From a virus: DNA of 50,400 nt. Position 1 is the first letter of the stretch, and each line of letters begins with the position of its first letter. The stretch is from the IMG/VR virus record IMGVR_UViG_3300034651_000168; one strand, given 5' to 3'. A model generated the notes under the pieces. The model searched no databases. It saw only the letters and a program-made list of their open reading frames with translations, and was not told the origin of the DNA. Shown piece by piece: positions 3,083 through 48,956 of the stretch. The translations under genes were made by a program, and so were the position numbers.

Positions 3083-3859
3083 GTGACAAGGAAGATTGCG
3101 GTATCCACGAACAAAGGCGGTGTCTTGAAAACATCAATCACCGTCAACCTTGCAGGGATTTTAAGTAAGGAAGGTAAACGAGTTCTAATTGTCGATACAG
3201 ATAATCAAGGGAATACGTTGCTTTCATTTGGTATGAATCCCGATGAATTAGAGCATTCTATTTATGATGTATTAGTTGATGGGTACGACGTGAACCAGGC
3301 AATCATCAAGGACGTTCATAAAAACATTGATATTTTACCGAGCAATGATGAAATGGCGTTTTTCGAGTTTGATGTATTGACCAAGATAAAATTATATCCC
3401 GAACCATTTAAAATGCTGAAAAGCAGTTTAGAAAGAATCGAATCGAAATATGATTATATTTTAATTGATACGCCACCGAATTTAGGATTAACACAAGGAA
3501 ACGCATTGACAGCCACAGACGAGGTTTTAATTCCATTCCAACCGGAAAATTACTCTATGCGTTCATTGGTGAAAATCCTATCATCTATTCAATCGTTTAG
3601 AGATGACCATAATCCAAGATTAAAGGTGTTAGGAATCGTAGCAACGCTTGTAGACCAACGAACAGTATTGCATTCGCAGATACTCCAAGAGTGCCGCAAG
3701 TATTGTTACGAGCATAATATAAAAATGCTTGAAACGGTTATACCTAGAACAATACGTTATGCAAGCAGTGTCGCTTATGAAGGATTACCTGCAACACTAA
3801 CAGAAAAGAATAATAACCTAATTCAAGCGTATATTGATTTAAAAGAAGAAATACAATAA
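3083..3859 (+). CDS. parA: ParA/Soj-family partition ATPase (small, type Ib-like)
   Basis: Deviant Walker A STNKGGVLKTS, ILIDTPP Walker B-like motif, 258 aa with no N-terminal HTH. GTG start behind SD GGGGGAA. Confidence 0.85.
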   Translation: MTRKIAVSTNKGGVLKTSITVNLAGILSKEGKRVLIVDTDNQGNTLLSFGMNPDELEHSIYDVLVDGYDVNQAIIKDVHKNIDILPSNDEMAFFEFDVLTKIKLYPEPFKMLKSSLERIESKYDYILIDTPPNLGLTQGNALTATDEVLIPFQPENYSMRSLVKILSSIQSFRDDHNPRLKVLGIVATLVDQRTVLHSQILQECRKYCYEHNIKMLETVIPRTIRYASSVAYEGLPATLTEKNNNLIQAYIDLKEEIQ

Positions 3860-3878
3860 GAGAAATGGGGAACTTGCA

Positions 3879-4175
3879 ATGAGTAAAAAGAGAACTATAT
3901 CTAGTTTTAATGAGGTTGCCAACGATAGCGATATTAACAAAAATATTAATAGTAATAGTGATAACAAAGACGATATTTTAAAAAGCGTCACCAAAGATAA
4001 GAAACCGAAAGACCAGACGCATACGTTCAAAGGATACTGGTTAGAAAATAAAGTCGCGAATGAGATAGACCGAATGACAGACGGACACCCAAAAGGAACG
4101 AAATCGGAATTTATTAACCAAATCATCAAGAATTACTTGATAAGTGAAGGAAGATTACCAAGAGAGGAAGATTAA
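3879..4175 (+). CDS. ribbon-helix-helix centromere-binding partner of ParA (ParG/omega-like)
   Basis: Immediately downstream of parA. Disordered Lys/Asn-rich N-tail, then a strand-helix-helix pattern HTFKGYWLENKVANEIDRM...KSEFINQIIKNYL. Confidence 0.55.
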   Translation: MSKKRTISSFNEVANDSDINKNINSNSDNKDDILKSVTKDKKPKDQTHTFKGYWLENKVANEIDRMTDGHPKGTKSEFINQIIKNYLISEGRLPREED

Positions 4176-4505
4176 ATGTTTGATGGTGAAATGGTATCGG
4201 AACAGATCGCCAGAGAATACGCAAAAAAAGTCGATGAAGTCATTAAAAGGAAACTCATAGAATTATCCTATAAAGCCTTATACGAACGAGAATATAAGCT
4301 ATATGACATACTTCATGAAATCGAGGAAGGAAATATAAACGAGAAGAAGGTTGAACAATTCAAGGATAAGCTAAACGAGGAAGGATACCTTTTAAGCGTA
4401 GAAATGCCCGAAGCCGATATTTCATTTGATGAAAATAGTTACTATGCAAATATGAATCCGAATGAAATTAAGATAAAAATATATAAAGAAATACTATCAG
4501 ATTAG
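4176..4505 (+). CDS. hypothetical protein (last gene of the rep/par operon)
   Basis: ATG abuts the previous stop. A terminator follows. Confidence 0.65.
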   Translation: MFDGEMVSEQIAREYAKKVDEVIKRKLIELSYKALYEREYKLYDILHEIEEGNINEKKVEQFKDKLNEEGYLLSVEMPEADISFDENSYYANMNPNEIKIKIYKEILSD

Positions 4506-4533
4506 GAAGGGTGCGGAATACCCTTCTTTTTTT
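4506..4533 (+). terminator. intrinsic terminator
   Basis: GAAGGGT-N7-ACCCTTC followed by T7. Confidence 0.8.
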
Positions 4534-4542
4534 ATTAGTTTT

Positions 4543-4595
4543 TTCCACTAAAAGCGTACTTTACTCTTTACAATCGTAAAGGTTATTGATATAAT
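4543..4595 (+). promoter_or_regulatory. early promoter cassette A with palindromic operator
   Basis: -35 TTTACA (4567-4572), 17-nt spacer, -10 TATAAT (4590-4595). Palindrome CTTTACAATCGTAAAG (4566-4581) lies over the -35. TTCCACTAAAAGCG at 4543-4556. Confidence 0.7.
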
Positions 4596-4642
4596 TGAAT
4601 TACAGCAGTTAAGAAATACTTAAAAAAAGGAGATAAGACGAA

Positions 4643-4879
4643 ATGAATAACTTAAAAGGAAAGCAAATCGTTACATTGGAAGACATAGAAAATGGAGAAA
4701 AAATTATCGTATCGAAAATGGATAATAAAATTATCGACATCGTATTAAAAGATGGAGAAGAAACAGGAGGAATCGTTCAGAGTTATTCAGACGATTTAAC
4801 TTCAATCGAAATCGCAGATGGGGAAGGATTTTTCAGCACGATTAGTTTTGAAGATATAGAGAGCGTTCATTACTTATAG
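4643..4879 (+). CDS. hypothetical early protein
   Basis: ORF with conserved initiation region AAAGGAGATAAGACGAAATG. Confidence 0.7.
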   Translation: MNNLKGKQIVTLEDIENGEKIIVSKMDNKIIDIVLKDGEETGGIVQSYSDDLTSIEIADGEGFFSTISFEDIESVHYL

Positions 4880-4884
4880 AAACG

Positions 4885-4902
4885 AGGGGGATTCTTCCCC
4901 CT
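4885..4902 (+). terminator. G5/C5 hairpin (family member 1)
   Basis: AGGGGGA-TTCT-TCCCCCT. Confidence 0.5.
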
Positions 4903-4905
4903 TAG

Positions 4906-4923
4906 AATATCAATATTAATAAA
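4906..4923. repeat. AT hexamer array 1
   Basis: AATATCAATATTAATAAA lies between the hairpin and the next SD. Confidence 0.6.
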
Positions 4924-4935
4924 GGGGATAAAAGA

Positions 4936-5145
4936 ATGTTGAAGGTTATCGAGTATTTAGAAACGCAAACAGATTTAGAAGGATTAGAACTAGCAGACGG
5001 AACAGAATTTGGTTATTTATTCTTTGGATATAGAGTTGAAAACAGTTCAGAGGAATTAGAAATACACGTCACGTTCACGAATCAAGTTTTTATTAATGGA
5101 GAGGAACAGGAAATTTTTCTACCGTTCAGCGTATGTTCGCTGTAA
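4936..5145 (+). CDS. hypothetical early protein, paralog of 48538..48750
   Basis: Shares the pattern I-x-[YF]LET-x-T-[DE]-[LV]EG-[LI]E...GY-x-F-x-G...SEEE-[LI]EI-x-VTFT...LPF-x-V-x-SL with the 70-aa ORF at 48538. Confidence 0.75.
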   Translation: MLKVIEYLETQTDLEGLELADGTEFGYLFFGYRVENSSEELEIHVTFTNQVFINGEEQEIFLPFSVCSL

Positions 5146-5174
5146 ATATCAGTATTAATATTAATATCAATAAA
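5144..5174. repeat. AT hexamer array 2
   Basis: AAATATCAGTATTAATATTAATATCAATAAA. Confidence 0.6.
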
Positions 5175-5187
5175 GGAGAGGGATAAA

Positions 5188-5445
5188 ATGAATTTTCAAG
5201 AAAACGCAAAAGGAATTATTAAGGATACAGAAAAAAGATTTAAGGAAGCTAAACGTATCATTAATTGGGAAGCAAAATTCAAAGAACTATCAAGGTTATC
5301 AACGCAACTTCTTTCACAAAAGATGATACTAACACCATTAACATACGGAAGCCAAAAATCGAGAGAAGGCGTTTATCTTTATGAAATGTTTGATAAACTC
5401 TATCAAGAAGTTAGCAGCGAACGTCAAAGCATGGTAAACAATTAA
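5188..5445 (+). CDS. hypothetical early protein
   Basis: ORF with SD AAAGGAGAGGG. Confidence 0.7.
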   Translation: MNFQENAKGIIKDTEKRFKEAKRIINWEAKFKELSRLSTQLLSQKMILTPLTYGSQKSREGVYLYEMFDKLYQEVSSERQSMVNN

Positions 5446-5463
5446 AACTAGGAGGAAACATTA

Positions 5464-5706
5464 ATGAAATCATTTTACAGACGCATGGCCGAGGAAAAAG
5501 GAATCCTATTAAATTCATTCGAGGTTGAAGTTGATGGAATCGTTCATATGATGAATGTAGACCAGATCGTTCAGCTTATCGAAAATGCACCACATCACGA
5601 ACAAAAGCATATTAAGGATACATTTTCTAAAATCGACTTTGCTAATGGAGACTTAATGCACTACATCAAATTTTTAGCCACAGCATTTATAAAAATGAAT
5701 TACTAG
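5464..5706 (+). CDS. hypothetical early protein
   Basis: ORF with SD TAGGAGGAA. Confidence 0.7.
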   Translation: MKSFYRRMAEEKGILLNSFEVEVDGIVHMMNVDQIVQLIENAPHHEQKHIKDTFSKIDFANGDLMHYIKFLATAFIKMNY

Positions 5707-5717
5707 GAGGAATCGCA

Positions 5718-5888
5718 ATGAAAGTATTTGAAGTAATCATTAAAGAGGAACTTGTTAAAACAAAGGTAGTAGGAGCAGAAAGTGAAGCAGAAGCAATTGA
5801 TAAGGTAAAGCAGATGTATCACAACGAGGAAATAGAGTTCGACTGGTCCGATTTTAGCGATGTAACGTTTGAAGCAAATAAATATTAA
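5718..5888 (+). CDS. small hypothetical protein (56 aa, not in the ORF track)
   Basis: SD TAGGAGGAA, then ATG at 5718: MKVFEVIIKEELVKTKVVGAESEAEAIDKVKQMYHNEEIEFDWSDFSDVTFEANKY. Confidence 0.6.
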   Translation: MKVFEVIIKEELVKTKVVGAESEAEAIDKVKQMYHNEEIEFDWSDFSDVTFEANKY

Positions 5889-5915
5889 TATCAATATCTT
5901 TATTATTATTGATAG
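5880..5915. repeat. AT hexamer array 3
   Basis: AAATATTAATATCAATATCTTTATTATTATTGATAG overlaps the stop codon of the 5718 ORF. Confidence 0.6.
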
Positions 5916-5921
5916 TTTATC

Positions 5922-5951
5922 CTTTACAAGTGTAAAGAGTGATGATATAAT
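5922..5951 (+). promoter_or_regulatory. early promoter cassette B with palindromic operator
   Basis: -35 TTTACA (5923-5928), 17-nt spacer, -10 TATAAT (5946-5951). Perfect palindrome CTTTACAAGTGTAAAG at 5922-5937. Downstream AGACATA motif is shared with cassettes C and D. Confidence 0.7.
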
Positions 5952-6058
5952 AGACATATAGAAAGTTAGAGATAACTAACTTTCAAGCCCATCAAAGGGT
6001 TGGAACGATAGATGGACTAGAAAAATCGTTCAATACAAAAGGAAAGGAGAGAAGAAAA

Positions 6059-6217
6059 ATAGAACTAGATAAGATTTTAGAAGACGCAAACGCAGGGGAT
6101 TTAGAGGAAGTCGTATTAAGCAAAGAGTTCCAGCAGTTCAAATCCAGTCTCATTGAAGTTTGGGAAGTAAACGACAAGGAGATAACAGAGCAAGATATTC
6201 AAGACTACCTTTGGTAA
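6059..6217 (+). CDS. candidate small protein with a non-canonical (ATA) start
   Basis: An 88-codon stop-free frame (5954-6217) has no ATG, GTG or TTG. A strong SD AAAGGAAAGGAGAG lies 9 nt before an in-frame ATA at 6059. Confidence 0.3.
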   Translation: MELDKILEDANAGDLEEVVLSKEFQQFKSSLIEVWEVNDKEITEQDIQDYLW

Positions 6218-6233
6218 AAGGAGGTAAGACAAA

Positions 6234-6332
6234 ATGTTTTTCTATCGACCATGTGAAAAATGTGGAGAATATGTAGACGATGGAAGCTACAAAGACGATA
6301 AGTACCAATGCCACGAATGCTTAGATAAATAA
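6234..6332 (+). CDS. zinc-ribbon mini-protein (32 aa, not in the ORF track)
   Basis: SD AAGGAGGTAAGACAAAATG. MFFYRPCEKCGEYVDDGSYKDDKYQCHECLDK has a CxxC...CxxC pattern. Confidence 0.6.
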   Translation: MFFYRPCEKCGEYVDDGSYKDDKYQCHECLDK

Positions 6333-6336
6333 GCGC

Positions 6337-6354
6337 AGGGGGGATTCCCCCCCT
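6337..6354 (+). terminator. G6/C6 hairpin (family member 2)
   Basis: AGGGGGG-ATTC-CCCCCCT. Confidence 0.5.
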
Positions 6355-6381
6355 AATAAACAAAAAGGAGATAACGACAAA

Positions 6382-6675
6382 ATGAAAAAAGAAATCAAGG
6401 AAATCACACTTAGAACATTAAGAAGAAGGAAAGACGTTCTAACTCATAAGGGAAACTTCAACGTTCAGTTTTTAAGAGAGAACATTCAAAAGTTAAAGCA
6501 AGAATTGGAAACAAGAGAATCACACCACACAGTAGGAAGTGGAATAGGGGTCCAAGTTGAAGTATATCCCGAAACCCATACTAAAATTATCAAACAGCAG
6601 GAAGAAAGGTTGGAAAGAAGCCTTAAAGAAATCGAGGAACTAGAGCAAGCTATCGAGTACATCGAAGGTTTATAG
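6382..6675 (+). CDS. hypothetical early protein (coiled-coil-like)
   Basis: ORF with conserved initiation region AAAGGAGATAACGACAAAATG. Confidence 0.7.
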   Translation: MKKEIKEITLRTLRRRKDVLTHKGNFNVQFLRENIQKLKQELETRESHHTVGSGIGVQVEVYPETHTKIIKQQEERLERSLKEIEELEQAIEYIEGL

Positions 6676-9695: not shown

Positions 9696-9741
9696 AAGAA
9701 GAAGGGAATCCTCTTTTAAGAGTTCCCTTCTTCTTTTTTTG
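9694..9741. terminator. bidirectional terminator between convergent genes
   Basis: AGAAGAAGGGAA (9697-9708) pairs with TTCCCTTCTTCT (9723-9734), with inner CTCTT/AAGAG pairing. Flanked by an A-run and a T7 run. Confidence 0.8.
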
Positions 9742-10084
9742 ATTTAGGAAGCCTGTCACGTACAATAACCTCCAACAAATCAACGATTGGTCCGAGTTCT
9801 TCTTCTGATAAAGGAACGCCGTTCCAATTCAAATTTTCTTTCTTCAAATACTTTGAAGCGTCATATTCCAACTCTTTTATATCGGGTTCGTCTGTCAGCC
9901 CTAAGATGTAATCTACCGACACGTTGTAAAGCTTGGACAATTTCATTAAGTTTTGAATAGGTGGCTTTCTATCTTCTGTCTCATACCCTGCATAAGTAGA
10001 GCGGCCAACTTCCAACTTGTCTGCGACTTCCTCGATTGTCCAATGCTGTTTCGTGCGTAGTTTCTTTAGTCTAGCACCAAACAT
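9716..10084 (-). CDS. CI-like XRE-family repressor
   Basis: HTH MFGARLKKLRTKQHWTIEEVADKLEVGRSTYAGYE. The start is set at 10084 (SD GGGGGAA), because the upstream ATG at 10141 lies inside the -10 of its own promoter. Confidence 0.8.
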   Translation of the reverse strand: MFGARLKKLRTKQHWTIEEVADKLEVGRSTYAGYETEDRKPPIQNLMKLSKLYNVSVDYILGLTDEPDIKELEYDASKYLKKENLNWNGVPLSEEELGPIVDLLEVIVRDRLPKSKKEEGNS

Positions 10085-10098
10085 TAGCAAGTTCCCCC
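10082..10098 (-). promoter_or_regulatory. repressor translation-initiation region, copy X of the GGGGGAA(A)CTTGCTAATG motif
   Basis: The reverse complement of 10082-10098 is GGGGGAACTTGCTAATG. Confidence 0.8.
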
Positions 10099-10139
10099 AA
10101 TCTAATTTTAATACTTCTTTAATATTATTCCCCCAATCC

Positions 10140-10167
10140 ATTATAGGTTAAAACTGAATATATTCAA
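10140..10167 (-). promoter_or_regulatory. repressor promoter with palindromic operator candidate
   Basis: Minus-strand -35 TTGAAT (10167-10162), 16-nt spacer, -10 TATAAT (10145-10140). The 12-bp palindrome TGAATATATTCA (10155-10166) overlaps the -35. Confidence 0.55.
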
Positions 10168-10238: not shown

Positions 10239-10267
10239 TTGACTTTTCCACTTAGACGAGTTATACT
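10239..10267 (+). promoter_or_regulatory. Cro-side early promoter
   Basis: -35 TTGACT (10239-10244), 17-nt spacer, -10 TATACT (10262-10267). TTCCACTTAGACGAG lies in the spacer. Confidence 0.65.
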
Positions 10268-10305
10268 ATGTACATACCCAATCGAGAAAGGAGATAAAAT
10301 CCTCT

Positions 10306-10518
10306 ATGAGTAGAAAAAGAATATGGATGGTTAAGCACCGACTAGAAAAAGATTTAACGCAAGTCGAGTTAGCGAAAAAAGTAAACATATCAAACCGTAC
10401 CATTTCAGAGATAGAAAGGGGGAACAGAAACCCATCGGGAAAGTTAGCTAAGAAATTAGCAGACGTACTAGAAGTTGATATGTCGAAGTTTTTCGAGGAA
10501 GAAAATGAAATCGCATAA
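10306..10518 (+). CDS. Cro-like XRE-family HTH regulator
   Basis: LTQVELAKKVNISNRTISEIERGNRNPS motif. Divergent from the repressor gene. Confidence 0.8.
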   Translation: MSRKRIWMVKHRLEKDLTQVELAKKVNISNRTISEIERGNRNPSGKLAKKLADVLEVDMSKFFEEENEIA

Positions 10519-10528
10519 GAAAAATTGA

Positions 10529-10546
10529 GGGGGAAACTTGCTAATG
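10529..10546 (+). promoter_or_regulatory. translation-initiation region of ORF 10544, copy Y of the GGGGGAAACTTGCTAATG motif
   Basis: Identical to the repressor initiation region except for one extra A. Confidence 0.8.
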
Positions 10547-10690
10547 ATTATTAAAGGAAAAGAATGGAACGCATTAACCGCAAAGGAAAAATTCAATCTT
10601 CTATTAGAACATTCCAATTTAAACGTTCTAGGGGAGCAGGTTATAAAAGGGAATAAAAATAAGCCCCACGACCAAGGAAATTTGGCGTAG
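10544..10690 (+). CDS. small hypothetical protein (48 aa, not in the ORF track)
   Basis: MIIKGKEWNALTAKEKFNLLLEHSNLNVLGEQVIKGNKNKPHDQGNLA, behind SD GGGGG. Confidence 0.5.
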   Translation: MIIKGKEWNALTAKEKFNLLLEHSNLNVLGEQVIKGNKNKPHDQGNLA

Positions 10691-10781
10691 GACTTATTTA
10701 AAAGGAAATAAGACAAAATATTTTTCTACCTTCATGGTAGCACGAACGACAAAAAAATTCAAATGGAAAGGAAAGAATACC

Positions 10782-14006: not shown

Positions 14007-14711
14007 ATGACATTAACATTCGAGCCAATTGCAAGTAGTAGCGCAGGAAACGCTTTTATCGTATCCGATGGAGAATCCAAGCTATTACTGGAATGCGGTT
14101 TGAAGTATCGAGATATACAGATCGCTTTAGACTTTCAAACATCACAGCTTGACGGTTGCCTTCTAACACATGAACATGACGACCATTCCCATTCAGTGAA
14201 GGACGTATTAAAAGCAGGAGTTAGCGTATATACGTCACAGGGAACGTCACACGCTTTAGGATTGAAGCACCATAGGTTAAAGTCTATCGAAGCACGAAAA
14301 CAGTTCAGAGTAGGCTCATTTACCGTTCTGCCATTCGAAACAGAACATGACGCAAACGAGCCTTTAGGATTCCTCATAGAAAGCAAAGGCGGAGAACGAT
14401 TGCTATTTGCTACCGACACCTATTTCATTCGATACCGATTTAAAGGAATCAATATTTTAGCGGTAGAGTGCAATTTTAGCGAGGAAATTTTAGAGCAGAA
14501 CATCATTGATGGAATCGTTCCATTGGGTATGAAAAGACGGTTGTTACAGTCTCATTTTAGCTTTGAGAATTATGTCGAGTTCCTTAAAGCAAATGATTTA
14601 AGTCAGCTAAAAGAAATTTGGTTGATTCATATGAGTAATAGAAATGCAGACGCAGAGAAATTCAAATCCGAGATACGAAAGATAACGGGAAAACCAGTCT
14701 ATATTCCATAA
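14007..14711 (+). CDS. MBL-fold metallo-hydrolase (probable nuclease partner)
   Basis: HxHxDH motif (LTHEHDDHSH). Confidence 0.8.
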   Translation: MTLTFEPIASSSAGNAFIVSDGESKLLLECGLKYRDIQIALDFQTSQLDGCLLTHEHDDHSHSVKDVLKAGVSVYTSQGTSHALGLKHHRLKSIEARKQFRVGSFTVLPFETEHDANEPLGFLIESKGGERLLFATDTYFIRYRFKGINILAVECNFSEEILEQNIIDGIVPLGMKRRLLQSHFSFENYVEFLKANDLSQLKEIWLIHMSNRNADAEKFKSEIRKITGKPVYIP

Positions 14712-20359: not shown

Positions 20360-20827
20360 ATGGTAACAGTCCAAGATAAAGCGTTGAAATCGAAGTATAT
20401 AAAACGAATCGAAAAACATTTGCGGCAATATACAACCTACAAAATAGGAATGATGACGCTACAAAAACAACTAGACCACATCATGCCGAACGTTACAGCA
20501 ACTTATAAATTATCCGAGGGAAGCAACGGAACGTTTGAAATAACGAGCGATACCGAGGATTATGCGGTGGATAGAATCGAGAGTAAGAAAGCCTTAATGC
20601 TTCATGAAGATATAGAACGTTATGGAATCATTATCGAATCCATAGACCAAGCGGTTAGCGATTTAGACGAGATGGAGCGGAAGTTTGTTGAAGTAAGATA
20701 TATCAATCGAAAGACCATTGCACAAACGTCTATCGAGTTAGGATACAGCGAGAAGCACATTTTTAATTTACGTCATCAAGTCATGGATAAGTTGCTTATT
20801 TCGTTACGAGGATTAACACAAGAATAA
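20360..20827 (+). CDS. ArpU-family / sigma-70 region-4-like late transcription regulator
   Basis: C-terminal RYINRKTIAQTSIELGYSEKHIFNLRHQVMDKL HTH. Positioned just before the late genes. Confidence 0.65.
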   Translation: MVTVQDKALKSKYIKRIEKHLRQYTTYKIGMMTLQKQLDHIMPNVTATYKLSEGSNGTFEITSDTEDYAVDRIESKKALMLHEDIERYGIIIESIDQAVSDLDEMERKFVEVRYINRKTIAQTSIELGYSEKHIFNLRHQVMDKLLISLRGLTQE

Positions 20828-20847: not shown

Positions 20848-21081
20848 ATGAGAAAAATGTTTTATCTTATAGCAGGATTAATTATCTTATTAACCCTCTA
20901 TCTTTCATATTCAGCATATCAAGACGGACGGACGATTGAACGGTTGGAAAATAAAGTCGAGACACTAGAAGAATCGAACAAGGAATTGAAACAGGACAAG
21001 GAGGAATTAGAGGTTGATTATTCATCAGTAAGAGATAGGTTATGGAGCGTACAGAACTATATTGAAAAACATGAGAACTAG
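20848..21081 (+). CDS. membrane-anchored coiled-coil protein
   Basis: N-terminal transmembrane segment FYLIAGLIILLTLYLSY followed by heptad-rich sequence. Confidence 0.65.
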   Translation: MRKMFYLIAGLIILLTLYLSYSAYQDGRTIERLENKVETLEESNKELKQDKEELEVDYSSVRDRLWSVQNYIEKHEN

Positions 21082-21130
21082 AAGTTTTAGTGCAGTTTTT
21101 CGATACTGTTACGGGGATAACAAACAACTT

Positions 21131-21203
21131 AAAAGGTGATAGTATAAGAATTAGCAAGTTTCCCCCAGTTCAAGCTATCACCTTTTAGGTGGTGGCTTTT
21201 TTT
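21131..21203 (+). ncRNA. structured RNA element at the early/late junction carrying an anti-initiation-region sequence
   Basis: AAAAGGTGATAG (21131-21142) pairs perfectly with CTATCACCTTTT (21175-21186). The loop contains ATTAGCAAGTTTCCCCC (21150-21166). A terminator follows. Confidence 0.5.
21174..21203 (+). terminator. intrinsic terminator 34 nt upstream of the first late gene
   Basis: 10-bp stem GCTATCACCT-TTT-AGGTGGTGGC followed by T7. Confidence 0.8.
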
Positions 21204-21236
21204 GTTTTGTATCATAGAGAGAAAGAGGGAACGCCA

Positions 21237-22403
21237 ATGAAGATTTATAAGAAAAACAACGTATTCGAGGAAGCATTAGAGCGCATACGTTTTCTGTTCG
21301 ATGAATTTGAGGAAGTATGGGTATCTTTTAGCGGTGGGAAAGATAGCACCGTTATTTACAACCTTGCTAAAATCGTAGCAAGAGAAAAGGGGAAATTGCC
21401 CTTAAAGGTTGTTTTCCTAGACCAAGAAGCGGAATACGAGCACACGATTGAATTAGTCAGAGAAATTATGTATGACGAGGACGTAGAGCCATACTGGATT
21501 CAAGTTCCTATTAAGCTATTTAACGCCACATCAACACAAGATGAATGGTTGCTATGTTGGGACGAGGATAACCCCGATAAATGGATACGAGAGAAAGACC
21601 CTATTTCCTATAAAGAAAATCATTGGGGAACAGATCGTTTCGCAGACTTCTTCTTAAAGTTCATGAATGCGGAATCGAAGGCAAGAGACAACATGAAAAT
21701 GTGCTACCTAACAGGAGTACGCACCGAGGAATCACCTTCACGTTACATTGGATTAACTACTTCACCAACTTATAAATGGATTACCTGGGGAAAGAAAAAT
21801 CAGTATAACAAAAATACGTTTTCCTTCCACCCTATTTATGATTGGTCATACACAGACGTATGGAAAGCGATTCATGATAACGGTTGGGATTACAACAAGA
21901 TTTACGATTATCAATATCAGCATGGAGTAAGAACGCAGGATATGCGAGTGTCGAATCTTCACCACGAAACCGCAGTCCATCACTTGTTTTTCTTGCAGGA
22001 AGTCGAGCCAGACACCTACCAAAGATTAACGCAGCGAGTAAAAGGAATGGACACCGCAGGGAAGCTAGGGAGAGATGATTACTTTGTTACTGAACTTCCT
22101 TTTATGTTTAAGGATTGGAAGGAATACCGAGATTACTTGCTAGAAAAATTAATTACGAACGAGGAACACCGAGAGAAAATGCGAAAAGACTTCCACCGAA
22201 CGGAGAAGAAATATATTCCTGCGGTTAAAGCGAATTCTATTTATAAGACGCATATCAGTATTATTCTCACAAATGATTATCATGGTACGAAGCTAGGAAA
22301 CGCAGAAAACAGATGGCGTTTGCAGTTACGAGATTACGAGAGGGAGCGGAAACGAAATGCAATGGCTAAAAGAAAAGCTAAACGAGAGCAACGACAAAAA
22401 TAA
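21237..22403 (+). CDS. IbrA-like PAPS-reductase/PP-loop ATPase with DUF3440-like C-terminal domain
   Basis: PP-loop VSFSGGKDST. C-terminal MRVSNLHHETAVHHLFFLQEVEPDTYQRL pattern. Start at M17 of the track ORF. Confidence 0.65.
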   Translation: MKIYKKNNVFEEALERIRFLFDEFEEVWVSFSGGKDSTVIYNLAKIVAREKGKLPLKVVFLDQEAEYEHTIELVREIMYDEDVEPYWIQVPIKLFNATSTQDEWLLCWDEDNPDKWIREKDPISYKENHWGTDRFADFFLKFMNAESKARDNMKMCYLTGVRTEESPSRYIGLTTSPTYKWITWGKKNQYNKNTFSFHPIYDWSYTDVWKAIHDNGWDYNKIYDYQYQHGVRTQDMRVSNLHHETAVHHLFFLQEVEPDTYQRLTQRVKGMDTAGKLGRDDYFVTELPFMFKDWKEYRDYLLEKLITNEEHREKMRKDFHRTEKKYIPAVKANSIYKTHISIILTNDYHGTKLGNAENRWRLQLRDYERERKRNAMAKRKAKREQRQK

Positions 22404-23019
22404 ATTCCTAAACGAGTTACGAGAGTTTGTTCATGAACATTCACCAGTAAAACATAATCCAGTAGACCTTGTTCGATGGGTACCATACACAAAAGTTCAA
22501 GCGAACGATTATAACCCAAACCAAGTTGCTAAAAATGAAATGAGTTTACTTCACACAAGCATTAAGCATGATGGATACACACAGCCTATCGTTACGGTTT
22601 ATGACGAAAACCTAGATAAATACGTTGTCGTTGACGGATTCCACCGTTACAGCGTTATGCGGCACTATGAGGATATACGAAAAAGGAATAAAGGATTATT
22701 GCCAATCGTGGTTATCGAGAAGGATATTAACGACAGAATGGCGAGTACGATTCGACACAACCGAGCGAGAGGGAAGCATAGCGTTCAAGGAATGTCGAAC
22801 ATCGTATTTAACATGCTAGATAACGGTTGGACGGACGCAGAGATTATTCACGAACTAGGAATGGAGTATGAGGAATTAATTCGATTGAAACATATTACAG
22901 GATTCAGCAAGCTATTCGAGAACGCCGAGTATTCCAAGGCGTGGGAAACCAAAAAGCAATTAAAGCTAAAAAAGGAATATAAAGAAGAACAAAAAGAAAA
23001 GGAGAATGAGAATGGTTAA
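22357..23019 (+). CDS. IbrB-like ParB/Srx N-terminal domain protein
   Basis: VVVDGFHRY and STIRHNRARGKH motifs. Overlaps the IbrA-like gene by 47 nt. Confidence 0.65.
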   Translation: MQWLKEKLNESNDKNKFLNELREFVHEHSPVKHNPVDLVRWVPYTKVQANDYNPNQVAKNEMSLLHTSIKHDGYTQPIVTVYDENLDKYVVVDGFHRYSVMRHYEDIRKRNKGLLPIVVIEKDINDRMASTIRHNRARGKHSVQGMSNIVFNMLDNGWTDAEIIHELGMEYEELIRLKHITGFSKLFENAEYSKAWETKKQLKLKKEYKEEQKEKENENG

Positions 23020-23668
23020 AAAATGGGATTATGGCGGAGCACATGATAGATACCCGATTGAAGAAAATGAGGTATGGAGCGTAGACGATGGGAAAGGGAA
23101 GCTAAAACCGCATGACTTATACGAGCCTTTACCCGATTTTATGAAGGAAGCGGATATGGTTATTGTTGACCCTCCTTGGAACTTATCGAACGTCAATACA
23201 TTCTATACGAAAGCAGATAAGCGAGGGGAACATACGAAAACATTTAACGAGTTCTATCAGCAGTTATTCAAACAGATAGACGTTATCGACCCGAACATTT
23301 TATATACCGAGATTGGGAAGCAGAACGTCAATAAGTTTGTTGAGGAATTTGAGAAAAGATTCCCTTATGTTCAAGTATGGCAAATAACGTACTACAAGAA
23401 GCACCCTTGCTATTTCGTGAGAGGGAGCAAACATTCACCTTTAGAATCGTTCGATTATGAAGGAATGGACGAATGGGATGCCATTCTAAAAGCGTTGGAA
23501 ATCGAGGATTATTCAACCGTAGCAGACCTTTGTATGGGGAGAGGTTTAGTTGCGGTTGGCGCATACGATAACGATAAACGATTTGCAGGAACAGAATTAA
23601 ACAAGAAACGTTTGGCAGTCACCATTGAAAAAATAGCGAAAAAAGGCGGTAAATGGAAAAAAGAATAA
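23006..23668 (+). CDS. DNA methyltransferase (DPPW catalytic motif)
   Basis: VIVDPPWN motif IV precedes a SAM loop DLCMGRGLVAVG (beta-type order). Confidence 0.65.
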   Translation: MRMVKKWDYGGAHDRYPIEENEVWSVDDGKGKLKPHDLYEPLPDFMKEADMVIVDPPWNLSNVNTFYTKADKRGEHTKTFNEFYQQLFKQIDVIDPNILYTEIGKQNVNKFVEEFEKRFPYVQVWQITYYKKHPCYFVRGSKHSPLESFDYEGMDEWDAILKALEIEDYSTVADLCMGRGLVAVGAYDNDKRFAGTELNKKRLAVTIEKIAKKGGKWKKE

Positions 23669-23681
23669 AAGGGGAAGGACA

Positions 23682-23861
23682 ATGAAAAATAAAACCGTTG
23701 TTAAACTTAGAAAAGCGAAAGAAGAAGGAATCCTAACCAATCAACAATTCAATACATTAAAAGGACAAGTTCTAAGCGGTCGTGAACGAGCGGCCGCCAA
23801 AGGATTTATGTCAATCATGAAATCAAATAAAAAAGAAAGAGAAAGGAAAGAAAACAATTGA
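23682..23861 (+). CDS. small basic hypothetical protein (59 aa, not in the ORF track)
   Basis: SD GGGGAAGGA. MKNKTVVKLRKAKEEGILTNQQFNTLKGQVLSG... Confidence 0.45.
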   Translation: MKNKTVVKLRKAKEEGILTNQQFNTLKGQVLSGRERAAAKGFMSIMKSNKKERERKENN

Positions 23862-24619
23862 AAATTGAAAAGAGAAATATCGACCTAATCAAACCGTATT
23901 GGAGAAACCCACGAAAGAATGAAAATGCAGTCGAAGCGGTGAAAGAATCTATTAAGCGTTACGGATACACGCAACCGATTGTCGTTGATAAGGATAACGT
24001 GATTATTGCAGGACACACACGCTATAAAGCGTTGCGTCAATTAGGATATAAAAATATTGCAGTCGTTCTATTGGATATAGACGAGGATAAGGCAAAGCAA
24101 TATCGAATCGCAGATAATAAAACAGCAGAAATGTCCGAGTGGGACGATGACCTTCTCATGTACGAATTAAGGGAAATCGAGGAACTAGAAGATATGACCA
24201 TCTTCTTTGACGATGGCGAACTAGACAGCCTATTAGATATACGAGATGAAGATTATGATTTTGACGATGACTTTGACGAGGAAGAAAGACGGGAAGAATT
24301 AGAAGAAGAAGCAAGAGCGACAGTCGTTGCTAGTCTAGGAACAGACGTAGATAAAGAAGATGAAGAAGTTCAAGAACAGATCGAGGAAAAAGTAGAAGCG
24401 CAAGTCAACGAGGAAATGAAAGAAGATATTCGAGAGAAAATGAAAGAAGAAAACGAGCGCATTAAAGAGCGAGAAAAAGAAATGAAAAACCAATTTAAAG
24501 AACGGACAGAGGACAGAGAGGACGATTACATTGAAATTCAGTGCCCACACTGCGATGAAAAATATATTCTTTCAAGGAGCGAACTACTTAGAGCCAACAA
24601 AGTACGAAGAACAGTATAA
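23858..24619 (+). CDS. second ParB-like N-terminal domain protein with acidic linker and C-terminal zinc knuckle
   Basis: PYWRNPRKN...GYTQPIVVDKDNVIIAGHTRYKAL pattern, as seen in ParB-methylase fusions. TTG start. Confidence 0.65.
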   Translation: MKIEKRNIDLIKPYWRNPRKNENAVEAVKESIKRYGYTQPIVVDKDNVIIAGHTRYKALRQLGYKNIAVVLLDIDEDKAKQYRIADNKTAEMSEWDDDLLMYELREIEELEDMTIFFDDGELDSLLDIRDEDYDFDDDFDEEERREELEEEARATVVASLGTDVDKEDEEVQEQIEEKVEAQVNEEMKEDIREKMKEENERIKEREKEMKNQFKERTEDREDDYIEIQCPHCDEKYILSRSELLRANKVRRTV

Positions 24620-25145
24620 CAACGAGATTTGCGAGCGAGAGAATAAAGAAATCCAGCGAATTATTAATAGCAATATTGATAACGATATTAATTTAATTCT
24701 TACAGACGTTGGTTGCGGAACAGGTTTAGGAAGTGAATTAATAGATAACCGTCATCAATACGTGGGGATTGACCGTTCGAAAAAGTCTATCGAGCATTGT
24801 AGGCAGGAAGATAAAAAAGGGATATTTATTAACGCAAACGCAGAGGAAATAATTCAGTACGTAGATTCGATTAACCCGATATTCCTTTTTTCGATAGATT
24901 ACTTGGATAACAACACGATTCAGAAGTTTATCGAGAAAACTGATAATATTTTTATAGCAGTTCACTATAATATGCCATATTTGAGCCGTACTTCTGTATA
25001 CAGTGGGAGAAAGTCTCTTTATCGACTGTTACACCCTAAAAGAAAAAGAAACGCTATGAGAGCATTATTTGAGCGTTTTAACGCAAGTACATTTAGATTA
25101 TTAGACGAGGATTATTATTACGTGACCATTATTAAAAAGGATTGA
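24531..25145 (+). CDS. class I SAM-dependent methyltransferase
   Basis: Motif I LTDVGCGTGLG. Overlaps the ParB-like ORF by 89 nt in another frame; the start is uncertain. Confidence 0.6.
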   Translation: MKFSAHTAMKNIFFQGANYLEPTKYEEQYNNEICERENKEIQRIINSNIDNDINLILTDVGCGTGLGSELIDNRHQYVGIDRSKKSIEHCRQEDKKGIFINANAEEIIQYVDSINPIFLFSIDYLDNNTIQKFIEKTDNIFIAVHYNMPYLSRTSVYSGRKSLYRLLHPKRKRNAMRALFERFNASTFRLLDEDYYYVTIIKKD

Positions 25146-33634: not shown

Positions 33635-34047
33635 TGGAGATTACGCAAAACGATTTAAAGAAAATGATTCCACAGTTCAAACGAGCGTTTCAACGTTCCC
33701 ACGAATTAACCGCACTAGACCTTTGGGGAAACTTGCAAGAGTTTTCACCACAAGACCATGGGAAATTAGCAGGTTCATGGCGACTGCAAAAGAAAGGGAA
33801 TTTACATTCAACCGTAGGAACGAACGTCAAATATGCGTTAGTTCAAGATGAAGGTTCTGACCCTTATATGATATATCCACGACAAGCACAGGTATTACGA
33901 TTTGAAATTAGCGGTCAAGTCATCTTTGCGAAAGAAGTAATGCACCCAGGGATTCAAGGTACAAATTATATCGAAGGTTCGATTGCGGCAACCAATAAAC
34001 GAGTAAGTGAATTTGTTGAGATGGCATTAGATGAAGAGGGGCTGTGA
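33634..34047 (+). CDS. HK97 gp10-family head-tail joining protein
   Basis: ...SPQDHGKLAGSW...VGTNVKYALVQDEGS pattern. Confidence 0.6.
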   Translation: MEITQNDLKKMIPQFKRAFQRSHELTALDLWGNLQEFSPQDHGKLAGSWRLQKKGNLHSTVGTNVKYALVQDEGSDPYMIYPRQAQVLRFEISGQVIFAKEVMHPGIQGTNYIEGSIAATNKRVSEFVEMALDEEGL

Positions 34048-48937: not shown

Positions 48938-48956
48938 AAGGGGGAACTTCCCCCTT
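48938..48956 (+). terminator. G5/C5 hairpin (family member)
   Basis: AAGGGGGA-ACT-TCCCCCTT. Confidence 0.5.

Follow-up and report, generated by a model that had tools for sequence, protein, structure and literature searches.

A putative late-leader RNA complementary to the repressor start region in Bacillaceae phage-plasmids

The IMG/VR virus record IMGVR_UViG_3300034651_000168, a DNA stretch of 50,400 nucleotides (nt) referred to throughout as the window, carries at the junction between its early and late genes a short C-rich sequence that is complementary to the start regions of its own cI-like repressor gene, of the open reading frame (ORF) following cro and of the gene following parA. This sequence, hereafter the seed, is preceded by a predicted promoter box and followed by an intrinsic terminator, and the same arrangement was found in related genomes, in which seeds of five unrelated classes are complementary to start regions of the genome that carries them. 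As judged from these sequences, it is probable, though well short of certain, that transcripts of the late operon terminated early, at about 55 nt, pair in trans through the C-rich 5' seed with the start regions and block translation. The junction RNA appears to be a new, RNA-based layer of the switch between lysis and lysogeny.

Complementarity of the junction seed to start regions in the window

The + strand sequence at 21150-21166 reads ATTAGCAAGTTTCCCCC, and the sequence GGGGGAAACTTGCTAAT at 10529-10545 (+) is its exact reverse complement (17/17). The latter ends with the first two bases (A and T) of the ATG at 10544-10546, the start codon of a 48-aa ORF after cro (10544-10690); this start codon is considered fixed because the N-terminus (M)xIKxxxW is kept in relatives. 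The reverse complement of 10082-10098, GGGGGAACTTGCTAATG, includes the Shine-Dalgarno (SD) sequence, the spacer and the start codon of the cI-like repressor gene (9716-10084, minus strand), and the third copy of the 17-mer, with one T missing relative to the junction copy, is located at 10083-10099. The cI start codon is the ATG given by the reverse complement of 10082-10084, with an N-terminus, M(F/Y)GxRL, kept in relatives; an in-frame ATG upstream of it, at 10141, falls within the -10 box of the PRM promoter. Searching the window for the 17-mer with up to 3 mismatches returned exactly 3 sites, against a mean of 0.19 for shuffled sequences, and none of 100 shuffles gave 3. The shorter core GGGGNAACTTGC was found at 6 sites where 0.24 were expected, three of them being the junction, the ORF and cI, one the gene after parA and another a terminator hairpin at 48940.

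Duplex formation was predicted for the seed against every 30-nt segment on both strands of the 50.4 kb (background -6.65 +/- 3.04). The start region of the post-cro ORF ranked first in the window with -33.3 kcal/mol, and that of cI ranked second with -31.0 kcal/mol, the latter pairing over 16 bp with one bulged U, or over 20 bp with two G.U pairs. The initial annotation of this DNA had described the exact match to the SD sequence, spacer and first two bases of the ATG of the ORF as well as the bulged 16-bp pairing with the cI start region, and had judged a chance recurrence very unlikely; all of this was borne out by the above searches, and the two initiation regions proved to be the two best targets of the whole window.

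With the 4 nt that follow the 17-mer, the seed (21150-21170, +) is complementary to three start regions in the window. The first (10529-10546, +) comprises the SD sequence, spacer and ATG of the 48-aa ORF, and the second (10082-10103, minus strand) the same elements of the cI-like repressor gene. The third, a target beyond the two named at the outset, is the start region ATGGGGAACTTGCAATG (3864-3881, +) of a 98-aa gene (3879-4175) directly after parA, with a predicted duplex of -19.4 kcal/mol. In addition, a second G-run, GATTGGGGGAA (10126-10136, minus strand), is located at the predicted 5' end of cI mRNA, just past the PRM -10 box (10145-10140); it is an 11-nt direct repeat, or half-copy, of the motif in the cI start region, and its duplex with the seed was predicted at -21.5 kcal/mol (rank 7). 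The seed locus is 10.6-17 kb away from its targets. Every target is on the sense strand of its own gene, on whichever DNA strand that gene lies, and is covered by the ribosome footprint. The copy at the junction is antisense in all cases, with the conserved -10 box on one side of it and the terminator on the other.

The remaining core site, a fourth perfect copy of GGGGAAACTTGC, was noted at 33725-33736, inside a structural gene (33634-47, sense strand) and away from any start codon. Its predicted duplex with the seed, -24.1 kcal/mol, ranks third in the window, and the copy may be either a chance occurrence or an internal target.

The junction element and its retention in relatives

The anatomy of the junction was drawn from 13 relatives, which were found through homologues of RecT, of the sigma-like protein and of SbcC. 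The junction element in the relatives was located with a profile made from the first matches, giving an alignment of 10 sequences; L110, which stops short of its junction, and the rearranged Bacillus mycoides plasmid p50 (L136) were left out. Directly after the regulator-side genes, the window carries two 7-nt direct repeats, AAGTTTT and CAGTTTT (21082-21099, +), the starts of which are 11 nt apart. Direct repeats of about 7 nt were observed in all the relatives right behind the regulator gene, in two to five copies and in the same 11-nt phase (three copies in L119 and five in Parageobacillus phage JGon-2020a, with lineage-specific variants in L121 and plasmid pSH-B74). By analogy with the Ltr-dependent promoters discussed below, the repeats are probably the binding site of the late activator.

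Downstream of the repeats is the sequence TGnTAnnAT (21137-21145, +), with TG at 21137-38, one base, and the hexamer TAGTAT at 21140-45. All sequences of the 10-sequence alignment share T1, A2 and T6 of the hexamer, and at least 90% conservation was found for A5 and for the TG upstream; the same box is present in L119, L121, pSH-B74, JGon-2020a and the Peribacillus asahii plasmid. From this pattern of conservation, the box is predicted to be an extended -10 promoter element. In seven relatives the complementarity to start regions begins 5-12 nt past the box, at or just past the expected transcription start, and on reading the sequences of the relatives it was never found to reach into the box. 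The initial annotation had reported no clear sigma-A promoter within 21082-21130. A predicted promoter does lie at the junction, the conserved box being just outside that stretch and the repeats upstream of it. Of the two origins that the annotation had proposed for the RNA, a late-leader RNA is now favoured, and the other, a small RNA derived from the 3' untranslated region of what it called the middle operon, is kept as a rival.

The intrinsic terminator (21172-21208, +) is composed of a 12-bp stem with a 3-nt loop (21172-21198) and a U-tract. A consensus fold of 10 relatives revealed compensatory double changes in 7 of 11 pairs. The predicted short RNA (21150-21205, +; about 51-59 nt) would consist of the unpaired 5' seed and the terminator hairpin. 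Among the five short RNAs folded, the terminator hairpin formed in all (z = -3.0 to -4.9), and the seed was unpaired in those of the window, L001 and L131; for L085 the fold left only the C-rich core free, within the loop of a small hairpin, and for JGon-2020a part of the seed was paired. Few columns of the junction alignment are as well conserved as those of the seed, and the predicted trans pairing ends before the terminator stem. The first late gene, a PAPS-reductase/DUF3440 DNA-modification gene (21237-22403, +), begins about 35 nt past the terminator. The layout of -10 box, terminator and first late gene is the same in relatives, and by reading of their sequences no conserved promoter-like box was seen in the gap between terminator and start codon. 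A comparison with Rfam gave no match at the gathering threshold in the whole window and only chance-level matches, at E up to 10, around the junction.

A transcript entering from upstream could fold differently. An alternative long hairpin (21127-21190, +), in which 21127-21143 pairs with 21174-21190, is the minimum-energy fold of the read-through transcript (-23.4 kcal/mol) and would compete with the terminator; the conservation of its 5' arm is accounted for by the promoter box, with which the arm coincides. Across relatives this antiterminator-like helix was 72% paired, 165 of 500 shuffles were as good, and one double change was found (L001). The 17-mer had been placed at the outset in the loop of a stem-loop just before a terminator. 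The terminator is upheld; the loop exists in the read-through fold only and finds no support across relatives.

When the 11 related genomes were compared, five unrelated classes of seed sequence were recognized, each complementary to start regions in its own genome. Every seed matches the start of the post-cro ORF, that of cI or both, and these sites are usually among the top three of genome-wide duplex scans; complementarity to a ribosome-binding site (RBS) was found in the window (17/17; 16 bp plus a bulge) and in 10 relatives. The initial annotation had asked whether the copies co-vary in related phages, and the sequence was found to change with the complementarity staying. Trans pairing with the starts of cI and ORF 10544, as first proposed, gains support from complementarity kept across the five seed classes.

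Class A, with the seed AGCAAGUU(U)CCCC, includes the window. The ORF and cI sites rank 1 and 2 in the window, in L001 and in L131, 3 and 2 in L117, and 2 and 3 in L118. Pairing in L001 extends over 14 nt on the ORF and 12 nt on cI, rank 1 in L117 is taken by the gene after parA, and the ORF pairing of L118 contains an internal G.U. In L131 a 20-bp duplex with the ORF is predicted, with co-changed flanks (CCCCUUUUC vs GAAAAGGGG); compared with the window, one position of it has changed from A-U to U-A and one pair is G.U. The class B seed CAAAUCCCC was found in L085, L002 and L083. It matches cI of L085 exactly over 14 nt (rank 1), the ORF remnant of the same genome being rank 2; the ORF and cI rank 2 and 5 in L002, and the ORF ranks 3 in L083. 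Class C is represented by Bacillus amyloliquefaciens pSH-B74, in which a longer predicted RNA (about 125 nt) with AUGGUUUAUCCCCUUUC faces the ORF start GAAAGGGGAAACCAUG over 15 bp plus a bulge (rank 2). For class D, phage JGon-2020a, the layout is five repeats, TGTTATTAT, the seed and the terminator. One half of this seed corresponds to AGGUGUUGCCUAU at the start of a DnaC-like gene and to GAGGUGUUGCC at another start. The other half corresponds to GACU(U)GCAUUGAUCGG, a pairing of 15 bp with one bulge that spans the TTG start of cI; on one start region other than that of cI, 13 nt pair. Class E is the seed AACCCCCAUGUUUGAU of the P. asahii plasmid, which matches the ORF start as AUCAAACAUG(U)GGGGU (rank 2) and the cI start region as AUCAAAC(C)GGGGGU (rank 5), both among 11,354 scan windows. 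The gene after parA in L001, L117, L083 and L131 carries the motif variant of its own genome.

Cognate sets of seeds and targets were better than permuted sets, at a fraction of 0.006 for the ORF and 0.002 for cI in 5040 permutations, a signal that mostly reflects the block of class A versus class B. A finer covariation, of the T/TT/TTT run within a class, was inconsistent and was dropped: the seed of L117 has TTT and its ORF site AA. Other readings of the junction sequence were likewise rejected. GGAAAC as the -35 element of an extracytoplasmic-function (ECF) sigma promoter has no -10 partner, and seeds of classes B-E are without GGAAAC; a gene or RNA on the minus strand is not supported, its ORFs not being conserved and no U-tract or conserved promoter being present there; and cis pairing of the seed with an upstream GGGGAUA is not conserved in L002 and L083.

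A separate observation concerns L088, a short metagenome contig. At 960-985 it carries the seed variant AGCAAGUUCUCCC, with the C-run changed to match an SD sequence of the GGGAG type.

Proposed regulation and alternative readings

At the early/late junction, the promoter, composed of activator repeats and the extended -10 element, and the terminator are set about 55 nt apart. We infer that the short RNA is made from this promoter and represses by pairing. Once the early operon is de-repressed, the sigma-like activator would be produced and the late promoter would fire; many of its transcripts would stop at the terminator and accumulate as a small RNA. The unstructured C-rich 5' end AUUAGCAAGUUUCCCCC of this RNA would then base-pair in trans with three mRNAs, those of cI, the ORF after cro and the gene after parA, over the SD sequence, spacer and start codon, and would block ribosome binding and probably destabilise these mRNAs. 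As the cI-controlled early operon has the activator gene at its end, the circuit would most likely be a double-negative loop, in which CI represses the early operon, the early operon supplies the activator, the activator drives the late-leader RNA, and this RNA represses cI translation. As a predicted outcome, resynthesis of the repressor would be stopped, lytic development locked in and plasmid-maintenance functions switched off.

An extension of this model, possible but doubtful, is that late-leader RNA and cI mRNA titrate each other, giving an RNA-RNA threshold switch on top of the protein switch. In the lysogen, abundant cI mRNA, with two G-run sites per leader, would soak up and destroy stray late-leader RNA; after induction, activator-driven leader RNA would exceed cI mRNA and repressor synthesis would be abolished. 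If so, the co-evolving pairs of seed and target would form an RNA component of immunity specificity in Bacillaceae phage-plasmids.

Several points weigh against the late-leader model. In every member of the family the RNA is a prediction from sequence. The promoter is a predicted one with no convincing -35 element, and a scan for consensus promoters did not report 21137-21145; transcription of the late genes, moreover, has to pass the same strong terminator. Cognate seeds and targets of class A do not in every case make the best pair, and for cI the complementarity reaches a weak -13.2 kcal/mol in L083 and a modest -18.9 kcal/mol in pSH-B74. Matches are inflated by the G-run of classes A and B, as any C-rich seed finds many RBSs, and the independent events number about five rather than eleven because the phages are related. 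In L085 the post-cro ORF is deleted, yet the RBS-like motif is retained, and this orphan motif could equally be a DNA site, an RNA decoy or a translational target. The biological meaning would also differ depending on whether the RNA is made in lysogens, as with PR' of the lambda type, or only after induction.

The orphan motif of L085, having outlived the ORF it once preceded, fits a DNA site, and identity of DNA sites on opposite strands mimics RNA complementarity. The copies at the cI start, after cro, after parA and in the first transcribed bases of the late promoter could on this view be asymmetric operators for a repressor-type protein that blocks late transcription directly in the lysogen; positions +1 to +17 of the late promoter are a sensible place for a repressor, and covariation with the type of cI fits an operator too. 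Scattered asymmetric operators are known from the phage-plasmid P1 (C1) and from Bacillus phage phi105. A protein operator is nevertheless unlikely, because the motif is absent from the PRM-PR region, on which CI and Cro have to act and where the best ungapped match in 10 of 10 genomes was no better than that of random windows of the same size, and because 1-nt indels set several sites apart. Such an internal insertion or deletion relative to the junction copy is present in about 6 of 20 sites (cI in the window, L118, JGon-2020a and the P. asahii plasmid; the ORF in L117 and pSH-B74), a change that is tolerable in an RNA duplex and would shift the register of protein-DNA contacts. The extent and boundaries of the match also vary between targets of one genome, two internal mismatches are compatible with G.U pairing (L118, L131), and all target sites are inside ribosome footprints and take the orientation of their gene, a rule that nothing would impose on a DNA site; the copy at the junction, for its part, is framed as a transcription unit by the -10 box before it and the terminator after it. 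A shared operator of the cI-cro intergenic region and the junction promoter was also looked for, and no motif common across genomes was found. The same pairing RNA might have another source, as the processed 3' end of a long early transcript or as a seed acting inside full-length mRNAs, early or late. The terminator does close an 11-kb co-directional early operon, the read-through RNA presents the seed in the loop of a stable hairpin, and the missing -35 element and the silence of the consensus scan point the same way. Set against this are the conservation of TGnTAnnAT in the manner of a -10 element in more than 10 relatives, even where the would-be hairpin is lost, the start of complementarity 5-12 nt past the box and never inside it, and the activator-type repeats upstream; taken together these make another source for the RNA rather unlikely.

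A promoter followed about 55 nt on by a strong terminator, ahead of a long operon, calls for some mechanism of read-through, and the junction could be a purely cis-acting leader of the late operon, serving attenuation, antitermination, pausing or activator loading, with the RBS match secondary. A helix that competes with the terminator can be drawn in the window, L001, L087 and L117, and the compensatory change in L001 is in its favour; as given above, it is not distinguishable from shuffles. In a variant of this reading, which the initial annotation had also raised, cI and early mRNAs would pair with the leader and modulate termination. That suggestion is not supported: the helix lacks a covariation signal, and trans pairing halts before the terminator stem and therefore cannot prevent the hairpin. 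A cis role, moreover, leaves unexplained why five unrelated seeds match start regions some 4-11 kb off in their own genomes, and we regard it as very unlikely. It is hardly probable, finally, that the junction copy has no function and is hitch-hiking as the relic of a duplicated or recombined gene start, a scar at a module boundary. Phage genomes are mosaic and short boundary sequences recur in them, and, read on the minus strand, the junction copy looks like an RBS that no usable start codon follows; against a relic, the seed is highly conserved in the junction alignment and is retained in five classes with matching targets, and the minus-strand ORFs that would begin at the junction copy are not conserved in length (91, 21 and 17 codons).

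The switch region contains two perfect palindromes. TGAATATATTCA (10155-10166) overlaps the PRM -35 element and TATGTACATA (10267-10276) lies just past the PR -10 element; although unrelated to each other in sequence, they are better candidates for CI/Cro operators than the 17-mer.

Relation to known systems and genome context

The c4 RNA (Citron and Schuster, 1990) reportedly sets the lysis/lysogeny balance of a phage-plasmid by RBS pairing in trans, and its seeds and targets are said to co-vary between heteroimmune phages. The junction element resembles c4 of P1/P7, as well as sar of P22 and 24B_1, in that a small RNA would carry a seed complementary to the RBS of its target. This much of the likeness to c4 drawn in the initial annotation is kept; the target and the sign of the effect differ. 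All of c4, sar and 24B_1 repress an antirepressor and favour lysogeny (PMC12197685), whereas the junction RNA would favour lysis, with the cI-like HTH repressor, the ORF after cro and the gene after parA as its predicted targets. Furthermore, c4 is processed from the leader of the operon that it controls, and the junction RNA would be encoded 11 kb off with its own predicted -10 box.

A parallel in biogenesis is StxS of Stx phages, a trans-acting small RNA that is the late-promoter transcript stopped at the first terminator (PMC7547250). As in StxS and lambda 6S, an intrinsic terminator comes very soon after the late promoter and precedes the late genes (PMC7547250). StxS differs in belonging to Gram-negative lambdoid phages and in having a constitutive promoter with read-through by the Q antiterminator, while the upstream regulator here is sigma-r4-like and accompanied by direct repeats, and no Q homologue was seen, though no search aimed at one was made; PR' of lambdoid phages is active in lysogens (PMC7547250). 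StxS is also longer than the RNA of about 55 nt predicted here, and acts on host and toxin mRNAs, the phage repressor not being reported as a target, whereas the predicted targets of the junction RNA are the phage's own.

In Bacillus, C-rich regions of the small RNAs RoxS and FsrA pair with SD sequences (PMC8216469). The junction RNA would share with RoxS/RsaE, FsrA and CsfG an unpaired C-run facing G-rich SD sequences, an end at a terminator and the same group of hosts (PMC8216469). The likeness is one of mode of action, not of descent: those RNAs are chromosomal, larger and multi-hairpin, without homology in sequence or structure to the junction RNA, for which no Rfam match was found. Unlike the pairing of these C-rich RNAs, that predicted here runs past the SD sequence into the spacer and start codon, allowing gene-specific targeting.

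Ltr-dependent activation of the late (terS) promoter in phages of S. aureus and enterococci requires 7-nt direct repeats situated just past the ltr genes; gel shifts showed binding of Ltr proteins to their cognate promoter regions, and the Ltr families include a Sigma70_r4-like one (PMC3753634). The window is similar to such regions (RinA, ArpU, LtrA-C) in that an activator gene ends the early operon, 7-nt repeats come next and a terminator stands before the late operon (PMC3753634). The terminator here is past the predicted transcription start, whereas that of the Ltr regions precedes the promoter, and the late operon opens with DNA-modification genes instead of terS. No trans-acting RNA is described for the Ltr-dependent regions.

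Known phage RNAs in the lysis/lysogeny decision repress antirepressors or functions of the cII type. A 2025 review of phage-derived small RNAs includes none aimed at the repressor's own start site and no case from Bacillus or another Gram-positive host (PMC12197685). If the present model is true, late transcription would feed back on repressor synthesis at the RNA level, and in Gram-positive phages, too, short RNAs ending at promoter-proximal late terminators could serve as dedicated regulators. A conserved and easily testable regulatory module would then be present in a little-studied group of Bacillaceae phage-plasmids, which carry RepA_N or DnaD-like replication genes, ParA, cI/cro and a sigma-like late activator; because three culturable hosts (Virgibacillus sp. 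CBA3643, B. amyloliquefaciens SH-B74 and P. thermoglucosidasius 23.6) carry members of the family, the prediction is directly testable.

The window begins with a DnaD-like candidate replication initiator (1278-2204), ParA (3083-3859) and the 98-aa gene. The gene for the cI-like repressor, an HTH_3 protein, and cro (10306-10518) are divergent, and consensus PRM and PR promoters were found by the scan. After cro come the 48-aa ORF, an SbcC-like ATPase, a RecT-like protein, an MBL-fold protein, a replication module and RecU, and the early block closes with the sigma-70 region-4-like regulator, a 77-aa ORF and the 156-nt junction. The early operon is about 11 kb long, co-directional and ended by the junction terminator. 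The regulator (20360-20827, +), of the LtrA type, is the last conserved early gene before the junction. Its match to Pfam Sigma70_r4 (E=9e-4) is below the curated cutoff, and PHROG 36 and 248, to which it also matches, are families of transcriptional regulators or activators; its homologues carry PF04545, PF08281 and PF05263 and are named specialized sigma subunits by JGI. The assignment as late activator is weak in the window protein itself and stronger in the homologues. The 77-aa ORF (20848-21081, +), with weak coiled-coil matches, is a variable insert between the regulator gene and the junction: it is missing in L118, where the junction element begins right behind the regulator stop codon, and in L087 and L119 the regulator match likewise ends just ahead of the junction element.

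Among the relatives, L131 carries RepA_N, ParA and MazEF (3220-6421), L085 is a separate replicon of 49,973 bp in Virgibacillus sp. CBA3643 (CP097348.1), and further members are Bacillaceae plasmids of 35-61 kb. On these grounds the family looks like phage-plasmids rather than integrating prophages, and no integrase was seen among the genes scanned. Megablast and blastn detected no DNA-level relatives of the window among deposited phages, and IMG/VR gave no match for the exact 17-mer or for RecT peptides. The 80 genome loci collected with the RecT profile share only the sbcC-recT-MBL module and are without the sigma-like gene and the junction element; in a blind search of these loci, the longest inverted exact matches between early and late regions were 11-15-mers, which is noise level.

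The rightward late block is tightly packed, with PAPS-reductase/DUF3440 and ParB-like genes, terS (25443) and terL (25906), and the list of co-directional ORFs past terL suggests head and tail genes, not individually annotated. The first genes past the junction (21237-25145 in the window) form a swappable DNA-modification cassette, with the junction element in front of it unchanged. It is composed of PAPS-reductase/DUF3440 and ParB-like genes in the window, L001 and L118, and elsewhere of NTP-transferase, ParB-like and TAGT (transglycosylase-like) genes, of an epimerase gene or of a mannose-6-phosphate-isomerase-like gene (L002, 13188-16038; L083, 19314-21173; L085, 17923-21140; L111, 11293-14539). 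The P. asahii plasmid (L135) has a tRNA-Gly(UCC) gene at 14626-14697, between the junction RNA candidate and the late genes; the window has no tRNA gene. Within the early region, a hairpin AAATAAGCCCCACGACCAA / TTTGGCGTAGGACTTATTT without a clear U-tract is located at 10657-10699, where it separates the 48-aa ORF from the SbcC-like gene. All close relatives retain it as AAUAAGUCC...GGACUUAU, L085 with its deleted ORF included, and it may be a processing, pause or termination signal of the early leader.

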